64,000 nucleotides of DNA from Candidatus Nomurabacteria bacterium (GCA_020632035.1 JACKGG010000001.1:221483-285482); one strand, 5' to 3'. Shown: positions 3,978 to 62,520, counted from the first letter of the stretch. Translations and numbers: made by a program. The notes: a model not told the origin generated them from the sequence alone.

Positions 3978-4208
3978 GTGAATATGGATTACTTTTAAAA
4001 ACAGGCCCATCATATATATGAGGGGGCTCGACCTGCCAAACTAAAATAAATAGATTGGACCTCGGCGGGCGAACCAATCGGTTCATTACCTGATATCCTT
4101 TTCGATATCAGACCAGCTGTCATGAGCCTGTTGCAGGACACTATATCAGAATATTTAAAAAAGAAAAGGCTGCCACTCATGGTGTCCACCTTTTCTTTTA
4201 ATCTTCTC
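3978..4208 (-). promoter_or_regulatory. Candidate L10 (rplJ) leader / promoter region
   Basis: A 230-bp untranslated region upstream of rplJ that is GC-richer than its surroundings. It contains the palindrome ctgatatc..gatatcag. The position matches the known autoregulatory L10 leader; the structure was not verified. Confidence 0.25.
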
Positions 4209-6551
4209 TTACAGCCCCTTTTCTTCAATCCTATTTCCAATATTTGATACTGCCGATGGCGTATTTGCTTCGATACGTTTTACAATCTCAAATGTATAAG
4301 CGTCATACACTTCTACTTCATTGGCTGTTTGAGAAACTATGTAAACAAATTTTCCATCATTAGTAAACTCTGGATGCCACGAGCTTTCCCCTTCGACTGG
4401 ACGAATAGTTTTTACGATTTCATCTACTCGAGCATCAATAACATATATTTCATCGTGAAATTCTCCAAAGGCTGTCTCTGCCCATACATAAGGATATTCT
4501 GGATCCTCCAAGAATGATCTAATAAATAACCCTGGACCAGCTGTTTTTATGTACGAAACAGGTTCCCATGTATTGGTATCAATAGCTGTAATCAACCCTT
4601 CGCCCAAAGCTGGAACGTAAACTTTATTACCCCAAGCTGCACCTGGACCAGTATGGGGAGTTTCTCCTGTAACCACTTCTGTCACTGGTTGCCAGGTATC
4701 TGTGTCCATCACCCAAACTGTTTTTGAACCCATTGAAGCAACAATGTAGAATCGTCCATCGGGCGTCAAAAATGCATCATGAAGGGGTGTGGCATTCTCT
4801 CCAATATTCCAGTGTTTCTCAATTACAGGAAAATCTGGTTTTGAGGTATCGATTACCCAAACGCTATTTAGGTCTTTTAGAGCAGCAATTACTTTATCTC
4901 CATCTTCAATCATTGCTCCTACCCGTGACTCTATTTCTTCACCATCAATTTCACCAACAGTTGGGATTGTTTTCAAAATATCTAGAGTTTCGGGATCAAC
5001 CATAACGACATTGCCAGGAATATAATTACCGATAGCCAAATATTTACCATCGTCAGTTAGCGCCGTCCCCCTGGAGCTTTCTCCAACACTAACCGACTTA
5101 ATCGGCTCTAGAGTATTTAAGTCAATCTTAGTCAACCAACCATCGCGAGCAATAATAAACATATACCGTGCATCTTCTGTATATACAGAAGTATGAGGCT
5201 GGAATCCAATGTCATGGATTCTGCCTAATTCAGTATGTGTGCTTCCGTCCATGAAAAGAAGTTTTTCTGCATCTTTCTCTACAATTACCATCAGGTCGTG
5301 ATTATCCCATGATCCTACTTCTACATATAACTCAGTATACGGATTGAGTTCAGTGACCTTCTCATCTGGATTTCCTGACTCCATCGCCACCACCCCATCA
5401 TCAATAGCGCCAATGAAGAATTTCATCTGTTTATCACTAATTCCCTTTCCGTGGTTGTGGTGATAATTTTCTGAAGCGTCTGTACCACAGTTAAATGCGG
5501 CCGGATGAAGCTTAGATTCTTCAGTCATATCAAACACCAACCCATCAATTATCAACCAACAACTATCTTTGCTGTTGTTAACAGTAACCTCTTCCGCTGA
5601 AAATCCAAGTAAGCCAATCTCGTATGATTTTACTCGATCACTTATTCCGTCTGGTGTTATTTTACGATAATTTTCTGTGGTGTCTGTACCGCATGCATAA
5701 ATATCAGGGTATTTCTCTGCGGCTGGAGTAGCGTCGTACACTCTTCCATCAATTGCCACCCAACAATCTTCGATGTTGCTGTGCATGGCAACTTCTTTGA
5801 GAGTATATGTAGTATTTTCCGGACCTTCATTTACCCCTTCAACGATTATTTCTTTTTCTGGATTTGATACTGCTACCACCTTCATATCCTCTTTAAAACT
5901 ACCGACTGCAGAAACTCCAAACACTACAGAAAATAAAATACCTAGAGCAGCGAATCCCTTTAAGATTTGCTTGTTTCTCCTTGTCAGTCTTTTAACTGTA
6001 GTCAAGAAAAACAGAAGACCAACTACCACTACAAAAAAGAAATAGGCTGACATCACCATAGAGTAACTGCCCGGAAAGCGAAACATTGCGTGGTGCAAAA
6101 TAATAAATACCCAAGACGCTACTGATACAGCTTCACTCACAACTAAGAATGCGAGGAGGTTTGATGGAGAGGCTTCAATTTCTTGATTGTTCTGTTTTTT
6201 ATCTACGAGTTGTCCAAGTTTAGGTAAATAGAAATATTGGAAGATGAAGGCATTAATCATCATGAGAGTAGCGATGGTCATATCAGCATAAAAAATACCT
6301 ATGCCAAGCATCGCCTCTGCCGACAAAGTGAACAAGCCCACTCCAGAAAAGGTATACAAAATAATCCCTACCCACACAACTGCTCGTGCATGACGAAGAA
6401 TCCTGTACTCGTCTTTAGAAATTTCCCCATCACGTACACTGGTGACAAATAATAAATTGCTGAGAATAGCAGCCCCAGCAGCAATAGATAAACCCAGTGA
6501 AAAAATAACCAAGTAGATGAGGTGAAGATCAAAATATGATAAAAGTTCCAT
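4209..6551 (-). CDS. Large membrane protein with about 6 N-terminal TM helices, two tandem cytochrome b5-like domains and a C-terminal YVTN-type beta-propeller
   Basis: The hydrophobic N-terminus is followed by 'YTLKEVAMHSNIEDCWVAIDGRVYDAT' and 'DSCWLIIDGLVFDMTEESKLHPAAF...NHGKG', which are cyt-b5 fold signatures. Repeated 'Y.V..DG..(L/Y)' blades follow in the C-terminal half. Confidence 0.55.
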   Translation of the reverse strand: MELLSYFDLHLIYLVIFSLGLSIAAGAAILSNLLFVTSVRDGEISKDEYRILRHARAVVWVGIILYTFSGVGLFTLSAEAMLGIGIFYADMTIATLMMINAFIFQYFYLPKLGQLVDKKQNNQEIEASPSNLLAFLVVSEAVSVASWVFIILHHAMFRFPGSYSMVMSAYFFFVVVVGLLFFLTTVKRLTRRNKQILKGFAALGILFSVVFGVSAVGSFKEDMKVVAVSNPEKEIIVEGVNEGPENTTYTLKEVAMHSNIEDCWVAIDGRVYDATPAAEKYPDIYACGTDTTENYRKITPDGISDRVKSYEIGLLGFSAEEVTVNNSKDSCWLIIDGLVFDMTEESKLHPAAFNCGTDASENYHHNHGKGISDKQMKFFIGAIDDGVVAMESGNPDEKVTELNPYTELYVEVGSWDNHDLMVIVEKDAEKLLFMDGSTHTELGRIHDIGFQPHTSVYTEDARYMFIIARDGWLTKIDLNTLEPIKSVSVGESSRGTALTDDGKYLAIGNYIPGNVVMVDPETLDILKTIPTVGEIDGEEIESRVGAMIEDGDKVIAALKDLNSVWVIDTSKPDFPVIEKHWNIGENATPLHDAFLTPDGRFYIVASMGSKTVWVMDTDTWQPVTEVVTGETPHTGPGAAWGNKVYVPALGEGLITAIDTNTWEPVSYIKTAGPGLFIRSFLEDPEYPYVWAETAFGEFHDEIYVIDARVDEIVKTIRPVEGESSWHPEFTNDGKFVYIVSQTANEVEVYDAYTFEIVKRIEANTPSAVSNIGNRIEEKGL

Positions 6552-10079: not shown

Positions 10080-12573
10080 TTTGATTTAAATTATTTATAA
10101 TTACTTTAATTTGAGATAAATCTTCTTCTGATATTATACGTCTTTTTGCGTATCTATCTAAAACTCTATCGAGCGAATTAAGTATTCTTGTCTCAAGTCT
10201 ACTGAAAACTGGTTTCTTATCAGCCTCTCTAGAGAAGAACTCTGCCAACCTAACCTTAACCATCAATCCTTTCTCGAGGTTATGTTTAAGATTCAAGTTT
10301 TCAATAATCTCTCTTAGATCAGAATAACTATACTCAGGATCTGGTTCATTTATAACTTCACCGTTGAGAGTTTGCTCCAAATCTGTCTCTCCATCGCCAT
10401 CTAAATCCGTCTTTAATAAACTGTATACTCCATTTTCAATAGCAAACTCAGCTTTCATTGTTAGACTAGTTGTTGCATTAGCCAAAAGTGACTTTTGACT
10501 TTGTCGACCAGACTCATTTACCTCATCAATACTAAGTGAATAAACACCTTCTCCCGTGCCAGCCAGTTCTATGGACACATCAATCTCAGCTGGCAAAACT
10601 AAGTATTTACTATCTCCCAACTCAAAATACTGCGAACCAGAAATCTCAGTCTTAATTTCTCCGGCGACAACTCCAACCTGATTGCCTGCTTGGTCTTTAG
10701 CCAATATCGATACTGGTGAGTGTACGCCCACAATTGTGTATCTTGAATTAACCCTTGTGAACTCAGGAATGATGACTGAATCGGTAAAATAAGGGTATTT
10801 AATAACAGAATCTACAAATATTTGAACTGAATCGCTTTCGGTTAGGTTTTTATGAGTTCTGTCTATGGTTGCAAACTTTGAATTTTCTTCTTTCAAATCC
10901 ACCACCGCAGTAACTTTATCTCCTTTATATCCTTCCGCCGAGAACCCCATCACAGTCTGATCTCCTTCGTTGGTCATGATAGGAAAAGGTTTTAAATATG
11001 AATGTAAAATACAGGAGGGATTACTCTCTGCACAGCTAAACTCTCTATACCGGTAACCTTTAATTGTCGCCAAACCAGTACCAACTACTTCGTACACCTC
11101 TACTCCGTCTGGTGCATGCCAAGTATCCAAAATATTTTGCATATCTGTTGCCTCAGAAGATATTTGAGCATTAAGTATAATTGGTTCGCTTAGAACCATC
11201 GCTTCATCTCTATTACCTAAGCTGTTGAGGAGGAAATTTTGTAATCTTGAAGCTGAGTCTATATCTCCATAAGTAGATACAAGCTCCGCTAACTCTGAAC
11301 CATCAGTTGTTATAACTGGTTCAGAAATTTCATTGAAGTACCCTTGTGAAGGCAACAGAGTGTAAGCTCCTGGAAGATTTCTAGTGACTTGTCGTATAGT
11401 ATCTGCCGTCGCAACCAAACCAAAACCGAGACTCTGATCAAGACCATGCAACATTGAGCCAATCGCTTTTGGTGTACCAAGCTGTGGAGTTCCAATCATT
11501 ATAAATTTATCAATCTTCCCAGCTAAATAAGTTTCTCCATATTCATAAAGCAGAGCCTTGGCGACCAATCCCCCATTGGAGTGTCCAATCAGGGTAACCT
11601 TACCTGTATATGATTCTTCAGCTAGGGCAAGTACTTCATCTAACAAATGCTTAGTTTCATTTTCATAGATGACATCTTCCTTTGCAACATCAAAAACACT
11701 ATATCTCCAGTCATAAGCGAACGGTTCAAAGTCTCTAATGACTTTATCAGATTTAAGTTCTTCCATTTGGTCTAAAAATGTCTCGTATATATTGCCTCCA
11801 GAGGGAATTTCATCAATGACATCTCTTGTGTAGATATCATTTATGCTTGCACCAGTACTTGTCATAGTCAACTTATCTACATCAGCGTTTCTATTCGGCT
11901 CCCAGAGTTTGTTTTCTGTACCTAAGGCACCTTCTGTATATAAGCGGCTGGCTTGGATTCCTGGTAGGAACAAAACACTTGAGGCTCCGAGTGGCTCTGT
12001 GGTCTCGTACTCTATTGTGAATGAAACTGCTACCACTTCGAAATCATCTGGGAAAAATGCATAAGCAATGTTTGGTAAGAATATTTTTTTAATAAACTGT
12101 TTCCAAATTGGTTCGGACAAAGTCTGAAAAGGTGGCAGCTCATAGGTCAGTACCGCTACATACTCCCCTGCTTGGAGTGAGTCAAACAAATAATTTTCGT
12201 CTTCAGACAAATCGACTTGTCTAAAGTCTTCACCTTCATGGCGGAAGAGCTGGAAAGGGAAAGCAAAATTACCACTCTTATTAATCTCAAAAGAGCCGGC
12301 CACCGGCTCACCTTCGATTACCGAAATTACCGCACCCTCCGTAACACTTTGCTCAGCTATCGATAATTCATAAGTGAAGGGTTCCGGCGTATCGACATTG
12401 AAAGGATTGTCACAATCTTCGATTGGGGTACTCTTTTCAACAAAATCTTCTAAATCATAATCAAAATAACGAGTAATTATGTCACCACAACTAGCAAAAA
12501 TGGTTGGAGACCAAAACGATAAATAAATTAGTGCAAATAATGCGCTTAATAGACTTTGACTAAATATTTTCAT
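10069..12573 (-). CDS. Secreted alpha/beta-hydrolase (lipase/esterase-like, GHSNG nucleophile elbow) with large accessory domains
   Basis: Has a signal peptide and the motif 'GKVTLIGHSNGGLVAKAL' (a GxSxG serine-hydrolase motif, PGAP1/lipase-like). Confidence 0.6.
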   Translation of the reverse strand: MKIFSQSLLSALFALIYLSFWSPTIFASCGDIITRYFDYDLEDFVEKSTPIEDCDNPFNVDTPEPFTYELSIAEQSVTEGAVISVIEGEPVAGSFEINKSGNFAFPFQLFRHEGEDFRQVDLSEDENYLFDSLQAGEYVAVLTYELPPFQTLSEPIWKQFIKKIFLPNIAYAFFPDDFEVVAVSFTIEYETTEPLGASSVLFLPGIQASRLYTEGALGTENKLWEPNRNADVDKLTMTSTGASINDIYTRDVIDEIPSGGNIYETFLDQMEELKSDKVIRDFEPFAYDWRYSVFDVAKEDVIYENETKHLLDEVLALAEESYTGKVTLIGHSNGGLVAKALLYEYGETYLAGKIDKFIMIGTPQLGTPKAIGSMLHGLDQSLGFGLVATADTIRQVTRNLPGAYTLLPSQGYFNEISEPVITTDGSELAELVSTYGDIDSASRLQNFLLNSLGNRDEAMVLSEPIILNAQISSEATDMQNILDTWHAPDGVEVYEVVGTGLATIKGYRYREFSCAESNPSCILHSYLKPFPIMTNEGDQTVMGFSAEGYKGDKVTAVVDLKEENSKFATIDRTHKNLTESDSVQIFVDSVIKYPYFTDSVIIPEFTRVNSRYTIVGVHSPVSILAKDQAGNQVGVVAGEIKTEISGSQYFELGDSKYLVLPAEIDVSIELAGTGEGVYSLSIDEVNESGRQSQKSLLANATTSLTMKAEFAIENGVYSLLKTDLDGDGETDLEQTLNGEVINEPDPEYSYSDLREIIENLNLKHNLEKGLMVKVRLAEFFSREADKKPVFSRLETRILNSLDRVLDRYAKRRIISEEDLSQIKVIINNLNQNEK

Positions 12574-12737: not shown

Positions 12738-12766
12738 GCTACCCGAAGGACCGTCCTTCGGAAAGT
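12738..12766. repeat. REP-like hairpin (ccgaagg-accgt-ccttcgg), 3' of the transposase-like gene
   Basis: Perfect 7-bp stem with a 5-nt loop. The same unit appears twice in tandem on the other side of the gene. Confidence 0.55.
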
Positions 12767-12783
12767 TTGAGTGTGGTGTAATA

Positions 12784-13458
12784 TTAATCCCTTTTGGGAA
12801 TTTCCTCGTCAGCGCCATAAGAAAGCCATTCTTCCATTTCGCTGTCGTAACTCTCCTTACTTGTGAAGTATTCTGGAAAACGTTCCCGATTAATAATCTT
12901 AGCTTCTGGGCGAACATAATTATTGTCTACATAACTTGAATATCTAAAACTTCTCAAATAATTCAACACCTCTTCTTTGTTATGAATACCCTTCTCTCTC
13001 CAATCACTTTGAATTAATTTCACCGGATTCAAATGTATATACGAAAATAAGTACTTAAGGTACATATCATCATCTACATGTTCTGACTTATAATTACCTT
13101 CGAACAATGAACCTGTGCGAAAATTTTTCTTATTAAAATACATCGAGTATCCTGTCGACAGCTTTTTCATAAAGGTTGTCGCTCCTCCATCAACCAACGG
13201 TGTGAGGAGTATATGAAAATGGTTTGGCATTAGACAATATGCCCCAATTGCTACCTGTTGTTGACCCCTGTCGAACTCAAAGACTCTATCTTTATCAATC
13301 TCTCGAAAATCAAACGAGGTGGTTCCATTCGAAATATATAATAAGGCACTAAATCTAGTGTAGTTATCTTCTGTAAGAAAAATAGCTTGCCTTGAGTTGC
13401 CCCTATTATAAATATGGTAGTACTCTCCTTCAACCAAAGCGACCTTTCTCTCTGACAT
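12784..13458 (-). CDS. Y1 HUH transposase (IS200-like / REP-associated tyrosine transposase, RAYT)
   Basis: Has 'YHIYNRGN..' and 'YCLMPNHFHILL' (HuH motif), then 'YIHLNPVK' (catalytic Tyr region). It is flanked by REP hairpins on both sides. Confidence 0.75.
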   Translation of the reverse strand: MSERKVALVEGEYYHIYNRGNSRQAIFLTEDNYTRFSALLYISNGTTSFDFREIDKDRVFEFDRGQQQVAIGAYCLMPNHFHILLTPLVDGGATTFMKKLSTGYSMYFNKKNFRTGSLFEGNYKSEHVDDDMYLKYLFSYIHLNPVKLIQSDWREKGIHNKEEVLNYLRSFRYSSYVDNNYVRPEAKIINRERFPEYFTSKESYDSEMEEWLSYGADEEIPKRD

Positions 13459-13483
13459 TATTAATATTATACCACATCCTCAT

Positions 13484-13556
13484 TTCCCGGAGGACCGTCC
13501 TTCGGAGTTAGTCTTTCCCGGAGGACCGTCCTTCGGAGTTAGTCCTTCGGAGTTAC
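13484..13556. repeat. Two tandem REP units plus a partial third (cccggaggaccgtccttcggagttagtc x2)
   Basis: Direct tandem duplication of a hairpin-forming unit upstream of the RAYT start. Confidence 0.6.
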
Positions 13557-36718: not shown

Positions 36719-39700
36719 TTAGGTTAGCTCCATTTTGAAACTAAAGTTAATGTCTCCTGCTTGAAGGGATTCTTGATCAGCCTCACCAAACTCAATTGAT
36801 TTGGCTCCAACTGTTTTAGTAATTAGGTCCTGGTGATCGGTAACAACCTTTTGTCCGGAGTTGTCGGTCTTAATCGTGAGCAAAATCGAGTCCCGAGGCG
36901 AAAGGCCTTCGGCCTTTCGCCTCCCCTGCACCGCCCGCATTAGTTCACGCACCACCCCTTCAGAGATAAGTTCGGGAGTAAGATTTGTGTCTATTGTTAC
37001 AGAATCTGCCACTTTGTAAGATTTTGCATTTAATTCATCAAGGATAACATCAGTAAGTTCACCAGAAAGCGCCGGGCCAGAAACGGATGATATTGGTTGT
37101 CGCACTTTTATGCCAATCTTTGTTCGGGCCTCTAGCGCTTGGGTCACAATATCTCTAGTCCTTTGCATCTCTGCCAATATATCCGTGTTAACTTCATCCG
37201 CATCTGGCCACTTTGCTAAATGTACGCTTTCAGAATCAGACTCCTTCTTTACTTTTTGCCAAAGATATTCAGCATAAAAAGGCATCGATGGAGCCATCAC
37301 TAATGCAAGAATACTTAGTGTATGACGAAGTGTAGCCAGCGCCTTAACTCTATCCTCCGCATCTTCTCCTTTAAACCTGTCGCGACTTCGACGTAAGTAC
37401 CATACAGATAAATCGTCAACAAACTCGGTAATTGGTCGAGTGGCCTTATCTAGTTCATAATTCTTATATCCATATGTCGTTTCTGAAACCAGTTGGTTAA
37501 GACGATTCAAAATCCATTTATCTAGAACATTATCTGAATCACTAGATGCCGAGGTATCATCAGCAAACATTTCGTACATCGTCAGAACATTATGTAGACG
37601 ACCAATGTTTTTTCTTTGCAGTTCCAGAACTTCTTTTTCAATAAAGTTGAAATCTTCCCCCTTTATACCAGGTGAAGACAACAAATAAAAGCGCATGGCA
37701 TCAGCACCAATTGTATGAGCTACATCCATTGGGTCTGGATAATTTTGTAATGACTTACTCATTTTACGTCCATCCTCTGCCAAAACCGTCCCATTTACGA
37801 CCACGTTTTCAAACGGTGACTTACCAAAAAGAGCGGTCCCTAGAACAATGAGCGAATAGAACCATCCTCGAGTTTGATCCAAGCCTTCAGCAATAAAGTT
37901 TGCTGGGAAATGCTTGTCCTCAAAATCTTCAGCACACTCAAACGGATAATGGTGTTGTCCGTATGGCATCGAACCACTTTCAAACCAACAGTCAAAGACG
38001 TCCGGTACTCTTTCCAGCCTTACCTCACCTTCGTATAAATCAATCTTGTCGATATACGGTCGATGAAAATCTAGTTCGTAGTTATCGTTGTGAGGGATTG
38101 GAATGAATTTAAGCTTTCGAACTTCTGCATTATCTAACCAAAATTCATTCTTTTCTCTAATCTCTACCGCTCTATCAATATTTGCCCCCTCAGAGACACA
38201 CGCTGTAGCAAAAGTTGAGCTAACGTGACCGATAATCAAAATATTTCTATCTTTGTAGTTATTCTCTAATGAATAAAGTAAATCACCGACTCTTTTCTGT
38301 ACGTCAACTCTGTTCTCATCAACCCCTTCAACCACCCTAGTAAATTGATCCTTGAAATCTTTATATAATTCTTGGTGTGTATTCCATTTTCTACCTTGAA
38401 ATTCTGCCCCAGCTTGAATTTCTCTTATTCTTTCATCGACAACAACTTGTTCTGAAGAAAGACCCAATTTTTCTCTTACAATCTCAGCGGTTTTTTTAGT
38501 TCTGTGGAATGGAGATACTATAATCAAATCTATATTTTCTTTTTTAAGTTCCGCCGCAGTTTCTTCTACCTGCCTAACACCAAGGTCAGTAAGATTATCT
38601 TCATAGTTTACATCTGTCCTAATTACTCTCTCAATATTACTTTCTGCTTCACCATGTCTCATCAAGAAATACTTATTACCGCTCTTTGGTACATACTCCT
38701 GAATCTCAGCTAAACTACCAAATACTTTGTATTCGCCTGTAGTTGGATTCTTCCAAATTGGCAACGGTGCTCCCCAGTATCTTTGTCTACTCACGGCCCA
38801 ATCACGAGCGCCATCTAGCCATTTACCAAAGCGGTTTTTACCAACGTGCTCGGGAACCCATTTTACTTTGTCGTTGGCTTCTACCAACTGGTCTTTGATT
38901 TTTGTCACCTCCACAAACCACGACGTAGTAGCGTAGTTCAAAAGTGGTGTATCACAACGCCAACAATGCGGATAGCTGTGAGTGATATTTTCCTTCTTAA
39001 GAATAACCCCTTTAGCTTGCAAAGCCTTCAGGATTTCAATATCAGCATCTTTATGGTCCACTCCAGATGCCTCGTCGTCCTTTGGCTTTACTAGTTGTCC
39101 GGCGAAGTCAGTCACAAAGTCCGTAAAGTGCCCAGCTTCGTCTACATGGTGCACTATCGGCACATTGTTGGCCTGAGCGAGCTTCATGTCATCATCTCCG
39201 TAGGCCGGCGCAATATGGACGGCACCAGTTCCTTCTTCACCCACTTCTACATAGTCTGCGTGATAAAGAGTCCAGGCTTTATCTTTGTTTTCGAGGTCTT
39301 GATTTTGCAGATAATTAAATGGTGGTTGATATTTTTTACCAAGTAATTCTGAGCCCTTGAATTCTTCGATTATTTCTATTTCAAAACCATTTAATTGAGG
39401 TAACCTGCCTTTAGCGAGAACTACAAAAGTTTTTGAATCGCCCTCATTCACTTTTACTTTCACATAATCCAAGTCCTGATGTATGGCAGCTGCCATATTG
39501 CCCGGCAAAGTCCATGGTGTAGTTGTCCAAACAAGTAGACTGGTGTCAGTCATCTCACCTGCTTCATCGAGCAGTGGGAGCTTCACCGTAACAGCAATAT
39601 CCTTAATATCTTTATATCCTTGATTCACTTCAAAGTTCGACAAGGTTGTCCCACAACGAGGACACAAATGCATGCTTTTGAAGCCCTCATACACAAGACC

Positions 39701-40255
39701 TTTTTCATGTAGAGATTTAAATACCCACCAGACGCTTTCAGTATAAGTACTGTCCATTGTCCGGTAGTCATTTTCCATATCGACAAACCGGCCCATGCGC
39801 GGGATGATTTTTTTCCAGTCGTCGGCGTATTCCAAAACAGCTTCACGAGCTTGTTCGTTAAAATTCTGAATCCCGTATTCTTCAATGTCTCGTTTGGTCG
39901 CTAGACCAAGCTTCTTCTCAATCAAATTTTCGAGTGGCAAACCATGACAATCCCAACCCCAGTTGCGCGCTACTCGATAGCCATTCATCGTCCAAAATCT
40001 TGGAATTGCATCCTTGATAGTACCGGCTAAAATATGACCGTAATGTGGCAAACCAGTTGCAAACGGTGGCCCATCATAAAAAACAAAATCCCCGACCGGC
40101 TCTTCGCCAGCTGGAGTTTCAATACTCTTCTTAAAAATATCATGCTCGACCCAAAAAGCCTGCATAAGCTCCTCTCTCTCGGCTGTTTCTGATTTAGGAA
40201 CAGCGTCAACAACTTCTACCGAATCGTTTTCACGTCCGTGCATTTTTTTATTCAT
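36719..40255 (-). CDS. ileS: Isoleucyl-tRNA synthetase (type 2) carrying an in-frame histidine-phosphatase domain insertion
   Basis: 'PPFATGLPHYGHIL' (HIGH motif), the CP1 editing region, 'WAVSRQRYWGAPLPIW', '...DCWFESGSMPYG', and 'KMSKSLQN'. The protein is 1178 aa, roughly 130 to 260 aa longer than typical IleRS proteins (about 920 to 1050 aa). Confidence 0.95.
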   Translation of the reverse strand: MNKKMHGRENDSVEVVDAVPKSETAEREELMQAFWVEHDIFKKSIETPAGEEPVGDFVFYDGPPFATGLPHYGHILAGTIKDAIPRFWTMNGYRVARNWGWDCHGLPLENLIEKKLGLATKRDIEEYGIQNFNEQAREAVLEYADDWKKIIPRMGRFVDMENDYRTMDSTYTESVWWVFKSLHEKGLVYEGFKSMHLCPRCGTTLSNFEVNQGYKDIKDIAVTVKLPLLDEAGEMTDTSLLVWTTTPWTLPGNMAAAIHQDLDYVKVKVNEGDSKTFVVLAKGRLPQLNGFEIEIIEEFKGSELLGKKYQPPFNYLQNQDLENKDKAWTLYHADYVEVGEEGTGAVHIAPAYGDDDMKLAQANNVPIVHHVDEAGHFTDFVTDFAGQLVKPKDDEASGVDHKDADIEILKALQAKGVILKKENITHSYPHCWRCDTPLLNYATTSWFVEVTKIKDQLVEANDKVKWVPEHVGKNRFGKWLDGARDWAVSRQRYWGAPLPIWKNPTTGEYKVFGSLAEIQEYVPKSGNKYFLMRHGEAESNIERVIRTDVNYEDNLTDLGVRQVEETAAELKKENIDLIIVSPFHRTKKTAEIVREKLGLSSEQVVVDERIREIQAGAEFQGRKWNTHQELYKDFKDQFTRVVEGVDENRVDVQKRVGDLLYSLENNYKDRNILIIGHVSSTFATACVSEGANIDRAVEIREKNEFWLDNAEVRKLKFIPIPHNDNYELDFHRPYIDKIDLYEGEVRLERVPDVFDCWFESGSMPYGQHHYPFECAEDFEDKHFPANFIAEGLDQTRGWFYSLIVLGTALFGKSPFENVVVNGTVLAEDGRKMSKSLQNYPDPMDVAHTIGADAMRFYLLSSPGIKGEDFNFIEKEVLELQRKNIGRLHNVLTMYEMFADDTSASSDSDNVLDKWILNRLNQLVSETTYGYKNYELDKATRPITEFVDDLSVWYLRRSRDRFKGEDAEDRVKALATLRHTLSILALVMAPSMPFYAEYLWQKVKKESDSESVHLAKWPDADEVNTDILAEMQRTRDIVTQALEARTKIGIKVRQPISSVSGPALSGELTDVILDELNAKSYKVADSVTIDTNLTPELISEGVVRELMRAVQGRRKAEGLSPRDSILLTIKTDNSGQKVVTDHQDLITKTVGAKSIEFGEADQESLQAGDINFSFKMELT
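38120..38677 (-). other. Histidine phosphatase (PGAM/SixA/CobC-like) domain embedded within ileS, approximately aa 527-712
   Basis: 'YFLMRHGEAESN' (RHGE..N), 'VSPFHRTKKTAEIV' (sSp.xRa.qTA), and 'ILIIGHVSS' (second catalytic His). It sits in the loop between 'PLPIW' and 'HRPYID' of the IleRS catalytic core. Confidence 0.7.
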
Positions 40256-44223: not shown

Positions 44224-44913
44224 TTACTCTAGTAATGGTTTGATAAGATTGTACACTTCATTATTTATATCGTCTTTACTTCGTAACTTATCATCAGAAA
44301 GACAAGAGACAATCTGCCACTTCTCTAGCCCTGCTATGTGCTTTGCACTATTTTGCACATTTGCTTGATATATAGCGTCTGTTTCGGTGTGTCCAAGGTT
44401 TGGCTTACTCTCATCGGTGGTTAAAAGAGCGTGTCTCATTTCCGCCGGCATATCGAGATACACGACTATATCTGGACGAGGAACCTTGAATACGTCGTAC
44501 TCTAAGCGTGACAGCCAAAGCAAAAATGCTCCACGTTTTTCGGTGTCTGAAATTTTTGCCCCTTGGTGAAGCATACTGGCGCTTACGTAGCGATCAAGCA
44601 CAACGTGCTTTCCTTCCTCTAGCCATTTATTGATCTGGTCACGGGTTTCAAATCTGTCGCCAGCAAATAAAATAGATGCCAGTCGTGGATCTAGATCAAC
44701 GAAGTTACCATGAACTTCATCAATCCATTCTCTAATATATGCACCAAAAAAAGTCTCATCGTAGTGAGGAAACTCTAGAGTCTCAACTTTGATTTTTTCT
44801 GCTTTCAACCGCTCAACCAGTAGCTTAGCCTGAGTCGCCTTACCTGCTCCATCCGCCCCCTCTATCACTATTAGTTTTCCTGACATAAGTTTTTGTTGAT
44901 CATATAATATCAC
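44224..44913 (-). CDS. Thymidylate kinase-like dNMP kinase (paralog A)
   Basis: P-loop 'IVIEGADGAGKAT' and 'VVLDRYVSASMLHQG' (DRY motif region, with HQG in place of the usual YQG). Confidence 0.7.
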   Translation of the reverse strand: MILYDQQKLMSGKLIVIEGADGAGKATQAKLLVERLKAEKIKVETLEFPHYDETFFGAYIREWIDEVHGNFVDLDPRLASILFAGDRFETRDQINKWLEEGKHVVLDRYVSASMLHQGAKISDTEKRGAFLLWLSRLEYDVFKVPRPDIVVYLDMPAEMRHALLTTDESKPNLGHTETDAIYQANVQNSAKHIAGLEKWQIVSCLSDDKLRSKDDINNEVYNLIKPLLE

Positions 44914-44926
44914 ACCTTATTTGTGA

Positions 44927-45334
44927 CTACTCTTCTTCAGAGTACCGACAGCTTTTAAGGTCAGCTGTGTAAAGTATTGCCTGTGGATCCTTCACAAATT
45001 TTCCTTCTCTCAACTCTCCTGAACGTGAATTTATTTCTGTGTACACCTCATCCATAACTTTGGTTGGATCATATCCTAGCTTTGCGATTGCCCCACTGGC
45101 AAAAACTATAATGTCGGCAAATGCATCCACAACCTTCTCCTCATCTACTGAAGCCTTGCCCACCATCTCTGTAGCAAACCTGGTCGCCTCATTTCTGGCG
45201 GTGACACTGTCAAACTTACCCGTACTTTCAAGCAGCTCTTCAACTATAAATGAAACCTCTTTAGTATAGTCAAACCCTTGCTCAAGAAGACCCCTTTCAT
45301 TATTCCAATCAACAATCTTCTGAAATATACTCAT
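44927..45334 (-). CDS. MazG-like all-alpha nucleotide pyrophosphohydrolase
   Basis: 'IVDWNNERGLLEQGFDYTKEVSFIVEELLE' and 'DAFADIIVFASGAIAKLGYDPTKVMDEVYTEINSR' follow the MazG/HisE-type EExxE and helical patterns. The start was placed at the internal Met 'MSIFQKI'. Confidence 0.5.
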   Translation of the reverse strand: MSIFQKIVDWNNERGLLEQGFDYTKEVSFIVEELLESTGKFDSVTARNEATRFATEMVGKASVDEEKVVDAFADIIVFASGAIAKLGYDPTKVMDEVYTEINSRSGELREGKFVKDPQAILYTADLKSCRYSEEE

Positions 45335-45421
45335 GCTGTTAAATTTTGAGACAATAATATGTATTGTAGCTATATGAATTACATATAGCAAAGATGTAAT
45401 TTATAAACCTTATGCCACTTG

Positions 45422-46078
45422 TTATTTTAGTTTGCTACAAACCAGTTGGTAGATTTCTTCATGAATGTCCTCTCTACTGCGTAATTGCCCGTCTTTTACA
45501 CAATTAACCGGCTGCCAGTTATTGAGCGAGGAAACCAAAGTTTGGGCTGCCTTTTCAGTAGCGATCTGATGCTCTTCATCTAACTCGGATGAATCTAGCG
45601 ACTTACGACTTTTATCATTTTTAAGTAGTAAACCACGGACAGAATAAGGAACTTCTAAATAAATAATCAGATCAGGTCGCGGGAGATTAAATACGCCATG
45701 CTCAACTTCATCTAGCCAGGTTAAGAAATCCTTTAGTTTAACTTCATCTTGTACCTTTGTACCTTGGTGAAGCATATTTGCGCTAACATAACGATCAGCA
45801 ACAACTATGTTACCGGAGTCAAGCCATTCTCTAATAAGACCTGACGATTCGAAGCGATCCGCAGCATAAAGTGTAGAAGCGATACGCGGATCCATCTTCA
45901 TAAAATCACCTCGCTTACCGTCGAGACACTCACGCAATAGTTTGCCAAATTTATTATCTGTGTACCTAGGAAAATCTATCGTTTTCACTTGGTGGCCCTC
46001 TGCCCCTAAACGTTCTCCCAATAAAGCAACTTGCGTTGCCTTACCAGAACCATCACTACCATCAATTACAAAAAGCAT
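45422..46078 (-). CDS. Thymidylate kinase-like dNMP kinase (paralog B)
   Basis: P-loop 'FVIDGSDGSGKAT' and 'VVADRYVSANMLHQG'. Identity to paralog A is about 45% by eye. Confidence 0.7.
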   Translation of the reverse strand: MLFVIDGSDGSGKATQVALLGERLGAEGHQVKTIDFPRYTDNKFGKLLRECLDGKRGDFMKMDPRIASTLYAADRFESSGLIREWLDSGNIVVADRYVSANMLHQGTKVQDEVKLKDFLTWLDEVEHGVFNLPRPDLIIYLEVPYSVRGLLLKNDKSRKSLDSSELDEEHQIATEKAAQTLVSSLNNWQPVNCVKDGQLRSREDIHEEIYQLVCSKLK

Positions 46079-46236: not shown

Positions 46237-47064
46237 ATGAAACAATACCTAGACACTCTCAAGCACATTTATGAAAATGGTACCGATGTTGTTGGGAGAA
46301 ATGGTAAGACCAGGAAGTTAATGGCCCAGCAAATGCGTTTTAACTTAAGTGATGGTTTCCCAGCTGTTACCACCAAAAAGCTTGCTTTTAAGGCAGTTAA
46401 GAGTGAGCTACTTTGGTTTATAGAAGGATCTGGTGACGAAAACCGTCTCAAGGAGCTTAACGGCACGGACAAAACTATTTGGACACCTAACGCTGAGGCT
46501 GACTATTGGAAACCCAAAGCGAAATTCCCTGGTGATCTTGGTCGTGTCTATGGTGTACAGTGGCGTCACTGGAAAAAATCAGACGGTGGTGAGGTGGATC
46601 AGCTGGCTGAAGTGATAGAAAAAATCAAGAAAGATCCGAATGATCGACGTTTGATAGTAAATGCTTGGAACCCTGGTGAGATAGACCAAATGGCTCTCCC
46701 GCCCTGCCATATGACTTTTCAATTCTTTGTGGTAAACAATAAAATTTCACTGCATATGACACAACGTAGTTGTGATATGTTTCTCGGTGTACCTTTTAAT
46801 ATCGCTTCCTACTCTCTGCTTCTTTCAATGGTGGCACAAGTAACCGATCTTACTCCGCACGAATGCGTACTGACATTAGTCGATGCTCACATCTACCACG
46901 ACCACTTTGAGGCAGTTGAGGAACAACTTACGCGACAACCACATAAACTGCCCACATTATGGCTTAATCCTGAAATAAAAAATATTGATGATTTTAAAAT
47001 GACTGATATCAAGTTAGAAAACTACCAACACGATGAAACCATCAGCGCAAAAATGGCAGTCTAA
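46237..47064 (+). CDS. thyA: Thymidylate synthase (ThyA)
   Basis: Contains 'MKQYLDTL', 'RRLIVNAWNPGEIDQMALPPCH' (catalytic Cys) and 'QRSCDMFLGVPFNIASY', with Asn retained as in dUMP-specific ThyA. Confidence 0.95.
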   Translation: MKQYLDTLKHIYENGTDVVGRNGKTRKLMAQQMRFNLSDGFPAVTTKKLAFKAVKSELLWFIEGSGDENRLKELNGTDKTIWTPNAEADYWKPKAKFPGDLGRVYGVQWRHWKKSDGGEVDQLAEVIEKIKKDPNDRRLIVNAWNPGEIDQMALPPCHMTFQFFVVNNKISLHMTQRSCDMFLGVPFNIASYSLLLSMVAQVTDLTPHECVLTLVDAHIYHDHFEAVEEQLTRQPHKLPTLWLNPEIKNIDDFKMTDIKLENYQHDETISAKMAV

Positions 47065-59106: not shown

Positions 59107-59180
59107 GGCGGCTATAGTATAACGGTTAGTGCATCGGTTTGTGGTACCGATAGTTCGGGTTCGATTCCCGGTAGCCGCCC
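59107..59180 (+). tRNA. tRNA-His (anticodon GTG) with encoded G-1
   Basis: Folded by hand: acceptor GCGGCUA/UAGCCGC, D-stem GUAU/GUGC, anticodon stem UCGGU/ACCGA with loop UUGUGGU (GUG), T-arm UCGGG-UUCGAUU-CCCGG, and an extra 5' G opposite discriminator C73. CCA is not encoded. Confidence 0.85.
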
Positions 59181-59377
59181 AAAATTCAGAAACTCCTTCG
59201 GGAGTTTTTGTGTTTTGGGTGGCTAGAAAGTAAACTGCTTTGCTCGCGTCGGGAATCGAAGGCCACAGGTATGTTTTTATTTCCTTTCCTAGAAATAAAA
59301 ACAGCCGAGGCGGGGTCGAGAACACTTGGTAGATTTGGAGTTGTAGACGAACAATATGCTTAGTAACTCGTGACCGA
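59176..59377. repeat. 202-bp direct repeat, left copy (DR-L), starting inside the tRNA-His 3' end
   Basis: 100% identical to 62151..62352. Contains a terminator-like hairpin aaactcc-ttcg-ggagttt. It is followed at 59384-59397 by a second copy of the tRNA 3'-end motif cccggtagTcgccc. Confidence 0.9.
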
Positions 59378-59542
59378 TTCCTTCCCGGTAGTCGCCCATT
59401 TTAAGAAGCTCTATTTGAAAACGTATTTTAGGGTATTTTTTTAGTGTCTACCAGACCTAGTGGAACCAAAGCAATGTTCTATTGAAAAATAGAATTATTT
59501 GTGGCATTGTGCAACCAGTAGAAACCCTGTCTGGAGGCTTGT

Positions 59543-60103
59543 ATGCTGACAATCTTCATAAGTCCTCACAATCATCAAATTACTACCGCTGATGGTCAAA
59601 CTATGATTGTCAAAGGAATGTTTTTGAGAGAGGCTGGTGGTTTTGTTAGTCTGTTTGACTACCAGCCACCAAAAGACCTAAACGATGTGCAGATTGTATT
59701 GGTAAGGAAATACAGGAAAAACAAAATTCTGTCACTGCCTACTGATTTGAAACAAGCGATATTGTCTTTCTTGCGTGACCATCACGCTCAGATTGATATG
59801 TCATTTGACTGCTATGCGTTTGCTAACCTGGTGAAAGGGGTAGAAGTTCACAAAGTTCCTTACATGATTGCTTTCTGGGAACGAAAGAAAAAGCCATGGC
59901 TACCACAGCCTGGCTCGGTTGTCTTCTACGGCACAGGAGAAACTCAATTTCACCACGCTGCTATCTATCTTGGTGCTGGTCTGTATATTTCGGTATATGG
60001 TGCTGGCGGTAACCTGGAGATAGCAACTCACCGAAATATGATGCGAGACTATCGTGCAAAACACGCTTGTCTGGCAGAACCACTAGAGGAGCCACTCGTA
60101 TGA
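59543..60103 (+). CDS. NlpC/P60-like (papain-fold) cysteine peptidase/amidase
   Basis: Cys in 'FDCYAFANLV' and His in 'GSVVFYGTGETQFHHAAIYLGAG', ordered and spaced as in NlpC/P60. Confidence 0.5.
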   Translation: MLTIFISPHNHQITTADGQTMIVKGMFLREAGGFVSLFDYQPPKDLNDVQIVLVRKYRKNKILSLPTDLKQAILSFLRDHHAQIDMSFDCYAFANLVKGVEVHKVPYMIAFWERKKKPWLPQPGSVVFYGTGETQFHHAAIYLGAGLYISVYGAGGNLEIATHRNMMRDYRAKHACLAEPLEEPLV

Positions 60104-60684
60104 GCTTATTTGAAGGTTATAACCTTGAAAACTGTGTTAGCCCTGACGAGTGTGGCTACCGCTGGATGAAAGAAGGTCTACCTGACCAAGACTTCTTGCG
60201 GACACGTTGGAGGTTGCGACGCACTCTCCCAACGGCGCAAGAACATCTCCAGCGTCACGCTACCGACTTTCCTTGGGGTGAACTTTGTCTGCAACATGGA
60301 CAAGTCAGTAAACCGCCATCATATCGGACCAATATCACAATGGTTAAACGTGGAGGCTTCCTTGAACCTGGTCACTGCTTCCGCAACTCTCTGAGAGCAG
60401 TGCAACGCTGGAAGGAAAAACCTCCTGAGTGGGCTGAAGGTAAGCTGATTACGTATGTTAAAGGTCTGGCCCTTGACCCTACAGGTATCTTTCTTCACGG
60501 ATGGATTGACGTTGACGGACAAGCGGTTGACCTGACGTTCATGCGTGCACACATGACCACCTACTTCGGTGTTCGGTTTGAACCTGATTGGGCAATTGAA
60601 ACTTGCAGGCAAATCAACAAATACGGCATCTTCCATACTTGGGAGAAAAGCCAACCATTGCTTGAAGAAAAACTGGCAGCTTAG
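60101..60684 (+). CDS. Hypothetical protein (translationally coupled to the upstream NlpC/P60 gene)
   Basis: The start ATG overlaps the upstream stop (gtATGAgc). 194 aa, Trp/Arg-rich, no recognisable motif. The ORF track's longer version (from 60067) overlaps the upstream gene by 37 nt. Confidence 0.4.
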
Positions 60685-60732
60685 CTGTCTTTACCACCCA
60701 TCCGTGCAAACGGGAGGGTGGCTTTTTCTTTT

Positions 60733-60850
60733 CCCTATCGACCCAGTGGAACCACTTTCTTCCCTCTCAACTGAAACAAACCCTTGCGTCGCTTAACCAA
60801 TCAAGACAAAGCTCTTCCAATTGGTTCCACCCCAGGGTTGGTAGCCGCCC
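60733..60850. repeat. Cassette-boundary repeat A (about 118 bp), with inverted ends agtggaacca ... tggttccacc, ending in a tRNA-3'-like ggtagccgccca
   Basis: About 85% identical to repeat B at 62050..62156. The opener motif tagtggaacca also occurs at 59457. Confidence 0.7.
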
Positions 60851-60928
60851 AAAGTATAGACAAATATACTTTTTGTTGTATTATTATATCTAGCAACCCG
60901 TACATCTACTTAAACAAGGAGGTGTCTA

Positions 60929-61504
60929 ATGCAGACGCTTGTAATTATCACTGGCACCTCAGGTGCTGGTAAGACACTTCAACTTGAGCTGTTGGAACAA
61001 CATTATGGACAAGGGCGAGTACTGACTATTGCTACTCGTGCGAAAAGAAATGGTGAGGCTGGCAATGCCTACCACTTTGTCAGCGATGAACAACTTTCAG
61101 AAATGGAATCGCGCAACGAAACCATTTGGGTTATTGGTCGATATGGCAGTCGTTATTCCATCACGGAGCAAGCGATTCGAGAACCTTTACGAAAAAATAA
61201 TGGTCTGGCGTTTGTGGCAATCACGCCCGATTACCATGCCTTCTTGGCTCAATGGTGTGAGAGACACAATATCTCACCAATCAACATCCACCTGATTGCT
61301 CCTGGTCCTGATGAACAAAGACGGCGCCTGCAAGCACGTGACGGTAGCTTCAGCCTCGAACGTGTGGAAGCAAACACCAAATTCGAAACTGATGCTCAGA
61401 AGGCAGCAGAAATTGTCACGCTTCACTTCATCGAGCAGGCCCAACCAGAAAAGATGTTCGCCAAGCTGTGTGAATTGATAGACTCCGCCCGCACCCCGAG
61501 CTAA
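60929..61504 (+). CDS. Guanylate-kinase-family P-loop kinase (Gmk/PhnN-like)
   Basis: 'VIITGTSGAGKTL' P-loop and '..NAYHFVSDEQ..' as in the Gmk family. Confidence 0.55.
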   Translation: MQTLVIITGTSGAGKTLQLELLEQHYGQGRVLTIATRAKRNGEAGNAYHFVSDEQLSEMESRNETIWVIGRYGSRYSITEQAIREPLRKNNGLAFVAITPDYHAFLAQWCERHNISPINIHLIAPGPDEQRRRLQARDGSFSLERVEANTKFETDAQKAAEIVTLHFIEQAQPEKMFAKLCELIDSARTPS

Positions 61505-61556
61505 GGAAAACGCCCTGCGTTCCCTGCTAGCTCGGGGCGTTTTTTATTTCATAATT

Positions 61557-61991
61557 ATGAGTACAATAATGACTATGACAGATATACAAATACCACGAGT
61601 TGGCGTTGGTCTCATTATCCGCCGAGATAATAAAATTCTACTCGGTAAACGAATGAATACCCATGGTGCCGAAACCTGGAGCCCGCCAGGAGGTCACCTA
61701 GAGTTCATGGAGACAATTGAAGACTGTGCAAAACGTGAAGCTATGGAAGAGACGGGTTGTGTCGTTACTAATATTCAACCACCAGTTTTTACCGAAGAAT
61801 TTTATCCCGAGCTAGACAAACACTACATAAACTTAATGCTTACTGCAGACTGGTTAAGTAACGAACCTACAGTATTAGAACCTCACAAATGCGAGAGTTG
61901 GGAATGGTTTGCATGGGATGAGTTACCATCTCCGCTTTTTCTTCCACTCCAAAATCACATCAATCAAGGATATACTCCTTTTCCTAAATAA
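61557..61991 (+). CDS. NUDIX hydrolase
   Basis: Nudix box 'GGHLEFMETIEDCAKREAMEETGCVV' (GX5EX7REUXEEXGU). Confidence 0.85.
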   Translation: MSTIMTMTDIQIPRVGVGLIIRRDNKILLGKRMNTHGAETWSPPGGHLEFMETIEDCAKREAMEETGCVVTNIQPPVFTEEFYPELDKHYINLMLTADWLSNEPTVLEPHKCESWEWFAWDELPSPLFLPLQNHINQGYTPFPK

Positions 61992-62049
61992 ATCATGTAA
62001 CTTAGCAAAATACTCATCATTTACGCACGGGTATCTGAGCCTACCGAAC

Positions 62050-62156
62050 TAGTGGAACCACTTTCTTCCCTATCACCAAAACAAACCCTTGCGTCGCTTA
62101 ACCAAGTAAGACACAGCTCTTCAAGTTGGTTCCACCCGAGGGTCGGTAGTCGCCCA
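62050..62156. repeat. Cassette-boundary repeat B (partner of 60733..60850), ending in ggtagtcgccca and abutting DR-R
   Basis: Inspection shows 'ctagtggaaccactttcttccct...ttggttccacccgagggtcggtagtcgccca'. Confidence 0.7.
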
Positions 62157-62352
62157 AAATTCAGAAACTCCTTCGGGAGTTTTTGTGTTTTGGGTGGCTA
62201 GAAAGTAAACTGCTTTGCTCGCGTCGGGAATCGAAGGCCACAGGTATGTTTTTATTTCCTTTCCTAGAAATAAAAACAGCCGAGGCGGGGTCGAGAACAC
62301 TTGGTAGATTTGGAGTTGTAGACGAACAATATGCTTAGTAACTCGTGACCGA
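62151..62352. repeat. 202-bp direct repeat, right copy (DR-R)
   Basis: Identical to 59176..59377. It is followed at 62357-62370 by an exact cccggtagccgccc tRNA-3' motif. Confidence 0.9.
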
Positions 62353-62520
62353 ACTTCCCGGTAGCCGCCCTAAAGCTTTTCGCAACCTAAACTTATCCCC
62401 GTGGTACTACGTCTAAAAGATACCTATTGCCTATGGCAAGATTATTTAACACACTTTCCCAAACAAAATCGTTATACACTCGGTAACAGAATTGCTTTTT
62501 ATGGTGCTTTATAAAAAGCT

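Follow-up and report, generated by a model that had tools for sequence, protein, structure and literature searches.

Non-coding units and gene cassettes without a recombinase, stacked behind a tRNA-His gene of a Candidatus Nomurabacteria bacterium, resemble elements integrated at gene ends

Bacteria of the candidate phyla radiation (CPR), or Patescibacteria, have tiny genomes with few recognisable mobile elements, which raises the question of how accessory genes reach them. Elements that have no integration genes of their own are known from streptococci, where cis-mobilizable elements (CIMEs) of the ICESt1 type have kept their attachment sites attL and attR, which derive from the 3' end of the target gene, and can lie in tandem at one site (PMC5704250). 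Any direct pair of these sites can recombine, with the enzyme coming from another element; CIMEs are decay products of ICEs (integrative and conjugative elements) or IMEs (integrative and mobilizable elements), they are kilobases long, and they depend on a related neighbour that bears an integrase (PMC5704250). Here, we analysed a stretch of 64,000 nucleotides from a Candidatus Nomurabacteria bacterium (GCA_020632035.1, JACKGG010000001.1:221483-285482), hereafter the window, in which positions are counted from the first letter. Behind its tRNA-His gene lies an island in which cassettes with cargo genes (1.3-1.5 kb) and non-coding units (about 215 bp) are stacked; both resemble integrated elements and encode no recombinase. 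The best explanation, towards which we lean by a modest degree, is the integration and excision of recombinase-less units that is directed by gene ends and catalysed in trans.

The tRNA-His gene is intact and is the sole tRNA gene found in the window by ARAGORN and Rfam. The features that define the locus are the following.

59108-59180, + strand: tRNA-His(GTG), from ARAGORN and the Rfam tRNA model (59.1 bits), with G-1 at 59107
59165-59180, + strand: core1, the last 16 nt of tRNA-His and the gene-end copy in use, TTCCCGGTAGCCGCCC
59169-59377, + strand: first copy of a 209-nt direct repeat, of which 202 nt are exact from 59176
59181-59397, + strand: X1, a non-coding unit (covariance model match of 141.6 bits)
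59387-59397, + strand: core2, the gene-end copy of X1
59398-60850, + strand: cassette C1, with a leader, two genes, a terminator and Y1
60851-62155, + strand: cassette C2, with a promoter-like site, two genes and Y2
62144-62352, + strand: second copy of the 209-nt direct repeat, from a repeat search
62156-62370, + strand: X2, the same as X1 up to 62352, with its scaffold at 62200-62349
62355-62370, + strand: core5 in extended form, TTCCCGGTAGCCGCCC, which closes X2

The two copies of the 209-nt repeat differ by a single C/T mismatch, and 202 bp of them are exact (59176-59377 and 62151-62352). The motif GGTAGYCGCCC occurs five times within 3.2 kb, at 59170, 59387, 60840, 62145 and 62360, always on the + strand, and nowhere else in the 64-kb window. 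The expectation for the whole window is about 0.45 occurrences, and none of 100 shuffles reached five. The fuller T-arm flank TTCCCGG is found in three of the five copies only (59165-59180, 59382-59397 and 62355-62370); those at 60840 and 62145 share just the 11-12-mer. Core1 and core5 are identical at 16 of 16 positions, including the T-arm flank, and both have the C variant, while the internal cores 2 and 4 have the T variant. Because of this 16/16 match to the tRNA end, the extended form of core5 (62355-62370) is read as the probable original end of the tRNA gene, displaced outwards. The order of the stack is tRNA-core1, X1 (about 205 bp), core2, C1-core3, C2-core4, X2-core5 and then the flank, which holds an MBL hydrolase gene on the opposite strand. 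Genes for MscL and ribonucleotide reductase (RNR) are found upstream of tRNA-His. The locus is made of four stacked units, X1, C1, C2 and X2, and not of one island plus extra scars; each unit begins after a copy of the tRNA 3' end, and the next such copy closes it.

An earlier note on this DNA had put the end of tRNA-His(GTG) at 59180 and had described the perfect 202-bp repeat; both agree with our coordinates, the exact repeat lying inside the 209-nt one. It had also counted five copies of the tRNA end, of which the five short motifs and the 16/16 match of the outermost one hold, and the fuller flank holds for three. Its view that repeated tRNA ends are a scar of integration is borne out by the used copy at the tRNA and the 16/16 displaced end at the far edge, and the multiplied motif, for which it had suggested accretion as one of two explanations, reflects the accretion of several units. 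The 202-bp repeats, which it took as the boundaries of the island, are instead two copies of the discrete non-coding unit X. Its GC contents of about 50% for the island and about 40% for the window overstated the difference: the island has 45.4% and the rest of the window 41.4%.

Unit X mirrors the own T-loop and T-stem of tRNA-His, CGGGAATCGAA, as well as its acceptor strand. The parts of X1, in addition to core2, are listed here.

59187-59210, + strand: terminator hairpin, from a terminator scan
59217-59225, + strand: mirror of the tRNA acceptor strand, GGGTGGCTA
59225-59244, + strand: M3 hairpin, from the sequence
59250-59262, + strand: mirror of the T-loop and T-stem, CGGGAATCGAAGG, an inverted T-arm match with p~0
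59225-59374, + strand: three-hairpin scaffold, from the covariance model and covariation

The same plan was found behind other genes, in sequences designated here by L numbers, of which L032 and L029 are two relatives from the Paceibacterota. Eight tRNA genes (His in the window; Asp, Met and Gln in L015; Arg, Leu, Val and His in L032) were tested over 400 nt downstream for a mirror of their own T-arm and a copy of their own last 12 nt, against 500 shuffles. Both the mirror and the direct copy, each with p<=0.014, are present in four of the eight, namely window His, L015 Asp, L032 Arg and L032 Leu, in which the mirror is at +37 to +78 and the direct copy at +125 to +210. L032 Val has a direct copy of 12/12, with a mirror of just 10/14 that is not significant (p 0.09), and behind L032 His there is nothing more than the conserved box and an end copy that is degenerate. 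Neither mirror nor direct copy lies downstream of Met and Gln in L015. The transfer-messenger RNA (tmRNA) gene of L029 is followed by a full unit, with mirror and copy again at p<=0.014, in which the 11-mer after the terminator is identical to that of X. A model-free scan, which asked for an exact 12-mer copy and an exact 9-mer mirror between copies, gave 11 matches in real sequence and 0 after shuffling.

Internal modules are common to units that follow different genes and come from different genomes; for example, the window X and the second unit behind tRNA-Val of L032 are 68% identical along 150 nt. The direct copy begins, in several units, immediately past the T-loop GTT, with a conserved ...GTGAC ahead of it. 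Two or three units may follow one gene in tandem, with decayed distal end copies. In L032, such cargo-less arrays lie at 1459-1966 and 2227-2600 (- strand) and at 5407-5860. tRNA-Arg is followed by three units, tRNA-Val by two and a fragment, and tRNA-Leu by two or three, and towards the distal side the gene-end copies become more and more degenerate. In L015, a 143-bp unit behind tRNA-Asp (12367-12508, - strand) has a terminator, a T-arm mirror and flanking 24-nt copies of the 3' end of tRNA-Asp. Furthermore, a unit of this family follows the window's gene for ribosomal protein L7/L12.

3349-2849, - strand: rplL (ribosomal protein L7/L12) gene
2658-2848, - strand: X-family unit behind rplL, with terminator, mirror, scaffold, second gene-end copy and second terminator
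2682-2831, - strand: scaffold of the rplL unit (covariance model, 25 bits, E 7e-5)
2792-2782, - strand: mirror of the rplL gene end, ACCTTAGCTCC
2681-2658, - strand: the last 24 nt of rplL in a second copy, ahead of the second terminator

The scaffold of the rplL unit ends in ...CTTGTGAC. The two rplL ends match at 21 of 24 positions, and both encode GAKVTLK*; the three differences (AAG/AAA, ACA/ACT and TAG/TAA) are all synonymous. This pattern would be expected if the resident gene end had been displaced by an element that brought its own version from a different lineage. By these sequence comparisons, X belongs to a family that lies behind tRNA-Arg, tRNA-Val, tRNA-Leu, tRNA-Asp, tmRNA and rplL.

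The scaffold of about 150 nt was examined with RNAalifold on an alignment of four sequences. Three hairpins are predicted, with 38 pairs in all; in 17 of these, pairing is kept although both sides have changed, compared with 7.9 in shuffles. In the alignment, 92.6% of the cells are paired, compared with 80.6% in shuffles; neither value was reached in any of 500 shuffles, and with slid partners 36-52% of the cells were paired. In most units, pairing of the mirror with the terminal copy is stronger than in shuffles, with z of about -2 to -3.8, but not in Arg1, Val1, Y1, Y2 and the Y of L023. The covariance model of the scaffold recovers all known units, the three tandem units behind tRNA-Arg of L032 and the rplL unit. 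In Rfam, tRNA was the sole match in the window, L015, L021 and L032, and nothing credible was found in the island at E<=5.

Modules of X were found solely directly behind tRNA, tmRNA and rplL genes, and on the strand of the gene, in about 173 kb examined. A position always directly behind a gene is what one would see if X were a non-mobile structured RNA or a regulatory 3' trailer that evolved in place, with the cassettes lying between gene-converted copies. This origin, which the conserved secondary structure also suits, seems to us quite improbable, for each unit is found just past a strong intrinsic terminator and has no conserved promoter, and tandem arrays of two or three with progressively decayed distal end copies are not what a trailer would give. 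The distal copy of the rplL end keeps the reading frame, has synonymous changes only and is followed by a second terminator, which fits a displaced gene end. Moreover, the scaffolds are homologous between loci, and therefore they have spread between loci. Two further observations agree with a trailer: a slight excess of G-U over A-C (92.6% of the cells paired in the gene sense and 89.3% in the other), and the X-like trailer that has been kept after tRNA-His in L032. Beside a terminator, this trailer has the conserved box GCGTCGAGAATCGAAG and an end copy that is degenerate; X is thus an old resident of such loci.

Other readings of X were considered and set aside. An assignment of the scaffold structure to one strand was dropped, the lean to the gene sense being only slight. 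A tRNA-like RNA, the ends of which would form an acceptor stem and a T-arm, is attractive for tRNA-His and tmRNA; since the rplL unit has the same plan, it was dropped as a general explanation. The mirror is not a primer-binding site of the retroviral type, as it matches the genomic flank (AAAA) and not a CCA-tailed tRNA. A promoter inside X was suggested by a TTGTGT...TAAACT pair in the window copy, the spacing of which is not conserved in the tmRNA unit. Co-variation between the T-arm of tRNA-His and the box of X was also rejected, as between the window and L032 the box is kept as sequence and not by compensation.

The cassettes C1 and C2 contain the following features.

59459-59468, + strand: leader box of C1, GTGGAACCA
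59543-60103, + strand: NlpC/P60-like gene of C1 (Pfam, 27 bits)
60100-60684, + strand: gene of a 194-aa protein of C1 (NCBI H6785_01315), overlapping the P60-like gene
60694-60729, + strand: terminator of C1
60734-60850, + strand: Y1, which ends in core3 (60840-60850)
60857-60884, + strand: promoter-like site of C2
60929-61504, + strand: guanylate-kinase-like gene of C2
from 61522, + strand: terminator-like site of C2, from a terminator scan
61557-61991, + strand: NUDIX hydrolase gene of C2
62040-62155, + strand: Y2, which ends in core4 (62145-62155)

Y1 and Y2 are about 115 nt each and 80-87% identical, and they carry the inverted motifs CTATCGACC/GGTTGGTAG and GTGGAACCA/TGGTTCCAC. Thermodynamic folding of Y is unremarkable. 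Units of the X and Y types share one plan, composed of a replacement gene end, a terminator or a promoter-genes-terminator segment, a mirror, a scaffold and the displaced older end. The middle part is a terminator only in X and promoter, genes and terminator in C1 and C2; the scaffold is about 150 nt in X and about 100 nt in Y.

Gene calls and Pfam agree with the earlier note on four genes of the + strand, for an NlpC/P60-like protein, a hypothetical protein, a kinase and a NUDIX hydrolase. The 194-aa protein has an invariant Cys-His-Asp and weak but consistent matches to the transglutaminase/papain fold, and these features speak against its being a hidden recombinase or Rep protein; its predicted fold has no recombinase signature, and no family was assigned. 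The cargo of C1 is a P60-like peptidase and a predicted Cys-His-Asp enzyme of the transglutaminase fold, and that of C2 is a guanylate-kinase-like protein and a putative NUDIX hydrolase.

The earlier note had seen no recombinase in the island. Likewise, we found no recombinase or replication signature in the four cargo proteins with Pfam, PHROGs and PADLOC, and with NCBIfam for the P60-like and 194-aa proteins. Thirty further open reading frames (ORFs) of at least 197 aa that were scanned in the window, which include RecA, FtsK and a RAYT-like HUH protein, comprise no tyrosine or serine recombinase, IS110 or TnpB protein, and no recombinase is found among the called genes in the 4.7 kb past the end of the window. 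The RAYT-like HUH (Y1) gene (12784-13458) was rejected as the enzyme, since it has its own flanking palindromes, unrelated to X and Y: it is flanked by 46-nt inverted repeats with the palindrome CCGAAGGACCGTCCTTCGG (region 12743-13536), and an extra copy of the CCGAAGGACCGTCCTTCGG type lies at 13515-13536, such palindromes being found nowhere else in the window. Its 661-aa neighbour, considered as a nuclease, is an acidic secreted protein instead.

In none of the units or arrays examined was an integrase fragment or pseudogene found, which is one reason to doubt that these are ordinary decayed islands, in which phage, tycheposon-like or ICE-like elements would have entered at tRNA-His time after time and lost their integrases and most of their genes, and X and Y would be the immobile leftover arms of attP. 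Stacked integrations with partial tRNAs and degenerate remnants are indeed well documented (10.1101/2020.12.28.424599; PMC5704250), and the repeated boxes of the ACTTAGT and GGAACCA types resemble arm-type binding sites. However, covarying hairpins are not expected of double-stranded arms that bind protein, the identity of X1 and X2 points to a recent event, and one scaffold family at seven or more unrelated targets, including a protein-coding gene, is unexpected for a single integrase lineage. We therefore consider decay of this kind unlikely. A phage, plasmid or viral origin was also set aside, as phage and plasmid collections gave no DNA match to the island, and viral contigs gave no Y pattern, no scaffold motifs of X and no relatives of the P60-like, 194-aa and guanylate-kinase-like proteins.

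Two Paceibacterota genomes, L032 and L029, have MBL orthologues of 80-82% identity and retain MBL, MscL, RNR and DUF2202. L032 keeps the order rhodanese-MBL ... tRNA-His ... MscL-RNR, with 5.2 kb of other genes from the tRNA 3' end to MBL, and in L029 the neighbourhood differs from that of the window. None of the four cargo genes is found at the locus in either genome; the cargo is therefore accessory.

Cassettes related to C1 were found elsewhere. L028 is a 1476-bp unit of C1 only, with the P60 gene and a homologue of the 194-aa gene at 70% protein identity. An identical stretch of 29 nt of Y and core is present at both ends, so that L028 is either closed on itself or a cassette between identical Y ends. 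Between the window and L028, Y is conserved at about 93%, while the proteins are 70% identical, and the box GTGGAACCA and the proximal leader are conserved as well. L023 (80% identity) has a homologue of the 194-aa gene and a Y, without P60 and without a tRNA. In the L015 group (76% identity), P60 is internally deleted and Y is absent; in L015 (9595-10004), the P60-like gene is split into ORFs of 46 and 90 aa, and residues 36-87 are missing. This copy, which has neither Y nor a gene-end copy, looks like a decayed and immobilised C1. In L021 (58% identity), the gene is bracketed by units with a different tRNA-like 3' end and sits in a longer array of small genes bounded by repeats. Other repeat families lie in L021 (1994-2096, 3933-4023 and 4927-5020) between small, mostly unannotated genes on both strands, with pairs such as 2028-2096 = 3956-4023 and 938-992 = 4966-5020. 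Neither the family of the 194-aa protein nor the Y pattern was found in GTDB representative genomes, and both are therefore rare or poorly represented among them.

Other metagenome assemblies with the island were located by exact-protein look-ups. In one of these, the MEGAHIT k141 contig L006 (3116 bp), the first and last 141 bp are identical and lie within the P60 gene; it therefore represents a closed unit of 2975 bp, in the order C1-Y1-C2-Y2-core-X-core-C1. When rotated, L006, which is from another metagenome, is 100% identical to 59181-62155 of the window (X, C1 and C2). In its sample, the neighbouring chromosomal gene is found only on a contig of 539 bp, which suggests that the 2975-bp unit is in excess over the chromosome, as a circle or as a tandem array.

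These observations can be combined into a mechanism. A unit would arrive as a circle that bears one gene-end copy and would recombine with the chromosomal gene end; the gene would be kept intact, and its older end would be shifted outward. Recombination between any two direct copies would release the DNA between them as a circle. The enzyme would be supplied in trans; it is encoded neither in the island nor in the 64-kb window. At tRNA-His, a closed core4-X-core2-C1-core3-C2 would have recombined with tRNA-core1-X-core5-flank, by a crossover anywhere in 59176-59377. The C/T pattern, with C in cores 1 and 5 and T in cores 2 and 4, fits such an event. A circle could also be released by RecA through the near-identical 209-bp copies of X. 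The site-specific nature of the reaction, the order of arrival and the action of the enzyme in trans are what we infer.

Several points weigh against trans-catalysed, gene-end-directed integration. Site-specific recombination is deduced from the anatomy of the units, no enzyme for it having been found in the window, and the evidence for the family comes from four genomes' worth of loci. The stems proposed for Y are invariant across the four Y copies and give no covariation, so that pairing in Y is putative. No clean empty-site allele (tRNA-X-MBL) was recovered; the locus of the relative holds other genes. L028 could equally be a cassette with two Y ends, since its closure is seen from 29 nt. 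L006 may be a tandem array of at least two copies and not a free circle, and its closure could come purely from RecA acting on the 209-bp repeat. Site-specific and RecA routes are inseparable here, because both give the same product with a crossover anywhere in 59176-59377. Finally, the junction of tRNA and X1 is present in the assembly of the window only; it is supported indirectly by the X-like unit after tRNA-His of the relative.

The points that concern L006 bear on another account, in which homologous recombination alone is at work: the copies of the tRNA end would be inert old scars, RecA acting between copies of X would have made both the arrangement and the 2975-bp form by duplication, amplification or looping-out, and no dedicated system would be active today. 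With 209 bp and one mismatch, the copies of X share enough for RecA, recA is present in the window, the junction of L006 is exactly as X-by-X recombination would give, and the crossover is not placeable any finer than the exact repeat. It would, however, leave unexplained the homologous scaffolds behind unrelated genes, each with its own mirror and end copy, the synonymous-only differences of rplL, the closing of the C1-only unit L028 at Y and core, and a Y that is conserved better than coding DNA. For these reasons we consider it unlikely.

The junction of tRNA and X1 could also point to an artefact, by which a small circular replicon was mis-joined into the chromosome at shared sequence. Short-read contigs from other samples mostly break at the edges of X, as is expected because a real repeat breaks such contigs. 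Two contigs with MscL (L013 and L014), which were made by different assemblers from different samples, the same ones that gave L001 and the circular L006, both end exactly at 58991; this position is 117 bp upstream of tRNA-His and may mark a structural difference or a branch of the assembly graph. C1, C2, X2 and the chromosomal flank follow one another on L001, a scaffold assembled independently, and therefore C2-X2-flank is not an assembly duplication. As tRNA-His of the relative is also directly followed by an X-like unit, and repeat-bounded units of the same plan are found in four other assemblies, a mis-join has very little to recommend it.

These comparisons also bear on what the earlier note had proposed to look for. 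Its excised circle has a candidate in the closed 2975-bp contig of another sample, with a tandem array as the other possibility. For the empty site, relatives that lack the four genes exist, and a clean tRNA-X-MBL allele is not among them. Of the two outcomes it had named as contrary, the first, the same four genes at this locus in relatives without the repeats, is not seen, the cargo being absent there in L032 and L029; the second, a repeat made by assembly, is not seen for C2-X2-flank, which L001 spans.

More tentatively, X and Y may be self-addressed modules without an enzyme, in which a folded strand (mirror, scaffold and copy) sets the site, and one enzyme in trans, from the host or a helper, may serve unrelated gene ends and restore each of them. 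This would be a programmable acquisition of genes in CPR bacteria with nucleic acid as the guide, possibly through uptake of single-stranded DNA by the competence machinery, and we put it forward as a possibility only. If mirror and scaffold do set the target, the system would be a compact and reprogrammable one for integration. In a conservative reading, the units are a class of repeats that has had no annotation and that follows genes for tRNAs, tmRNA and a ribosomal protein; it breaks short-read assemblies and marks hotspots of gene gain in these genomes, and a covariance model is now available for finding them.

Away from the island, three other observations were made in the window, all on the - strand. 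A class I aminoacyl-tRNA synthetase of 1178 aa with isoleucyl-type domains (36719-40255) has a histidine-phosphatase (His_Phos_1) domain inserted at residues 530-697. In a 780-aa protein (4209-6551), a cytochrome b5-like domain is joined to a beta-propeller of the cytochrome d1 heme (nitrite-reductase) type, which is unexpected for a reduced CPR genome. Two thymidylate-kinase paralogues (44224-44913 and 45422-46078, within 44224-46078) are close neighbours of each other and lie near thymidylate synthase (46237-47064).

Compared with known systems, the locus has a typical feature of tDNA islands of the Islander type, in that the target is restored by the element and the displaced fragment lies at the far end; it does not have their own tyrosine or serine integrase. 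Tycheposons of Prochlorococcus (10.1101/2020.12.28.424599) and ssrA islands of Dehalococcoides (PMC3146451) likewise place cargo beside tRNA or tmRNA genes in streamlined genomes, with stacked elements split by partial gene ends, and their circular and tandem junctions have been detected. They are 10-20 kb long and have tyrosine or large serine recombinases and often replication modules, whereas the units described here have no recombinase or replication gene, the cassettes are about 1.3-1.5 kb and the cargo-less units are non-coding.

Integron cassettes and CALINs are similar in that cassettes of one or two genes, without a recombinase, end in imperfect palindromes of about 100 nt, in which conservation is higher than in the genes; the cassettes are lined up in co-oriented arrays, occur free as circles and use a recombinase encoded elsewhere. 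However, there is no IntI, attI or Pc at tRNA-His, the head of the array is the end of a tRNA gene that is restored by each unit, the cassettes carry their own promoter-like sites, and Y gives no covariation. Y was rejected as an attC site, as it does not contain the core consensus RYYYAAC ... GTTRRRY and its stems, being invariant, show no covariation. Elements of the IMEX type (CTX-phi) also have no recombinase of their own, and their inverted repeats fold a single strand into a duplex copy of the target. Their target is always dif, and their enzyme, XerCD, is known and comes from the host, while the target that would be mimicked here, as read from the sequence, varies by locus (tRNAs for His, Arg, Val, Leu and Asp, as well as tmRNA and rplL).

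The bridge RNA of IS110 (PMC11208160) and the homing guides of Cas12k transposons, which match tRNA genes (10.1101/2021.02.06.429022), likewise combine a structured scaffold with short segments that match the target, and segments of X match both target strands, as mirror and as copy; the likeness goes no further. Genes for an IS110 recombinase, Cas12k, Tns or TnpB are not found nearby, the segments that match have 11-24 nt and both lie on one stretch of the target instead of on its left and right halves, and the units lie behind terminators without an evident promoter. Whereas the bridge RNA has two internal loops, the sides of which pair with both strands of target and donor, here mirror and copy flank the scaffold. 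REPINs with RAYTs are short non-coding hairpin repeats that a single-copy HUH (Y1) enzyme, acting in trans, has dispersed in a genome, and a RAYT-like gene is present in the window. The palindromes of that gene share nothing notable with X and Y, however, and a REPIN neither restores a gene end nor is fitted to the gene beside it.

CIMEs are similar in that units without mobility genes are each bounded by copies of the gene end from the 3' end of the target. They differ in that no remnants of integration or transfer genes are seen here, nor an integrase-bearing neighbour in the window or in the 4.7 kb beyond; moreover, the units here are as small as about 215 bp, and have a mirror of the target, a covarying scaffold and many unrelated targets for one scaffold family. 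In the literature searched, we found no description of non-coding units at unrelated targets in which a covarying scaffold goes together with a gene end that is restored and with its mirror, which is not proof of novelty. Stacked elements with partial tRNAs, and att-bearing elements without an integrase such as CIMEs, are already established. The island at tRNA-His stands near CIMEs and tycheposons but outside them, because neither decay from an integrase-bearing neighbour nor dependence on one is seen.

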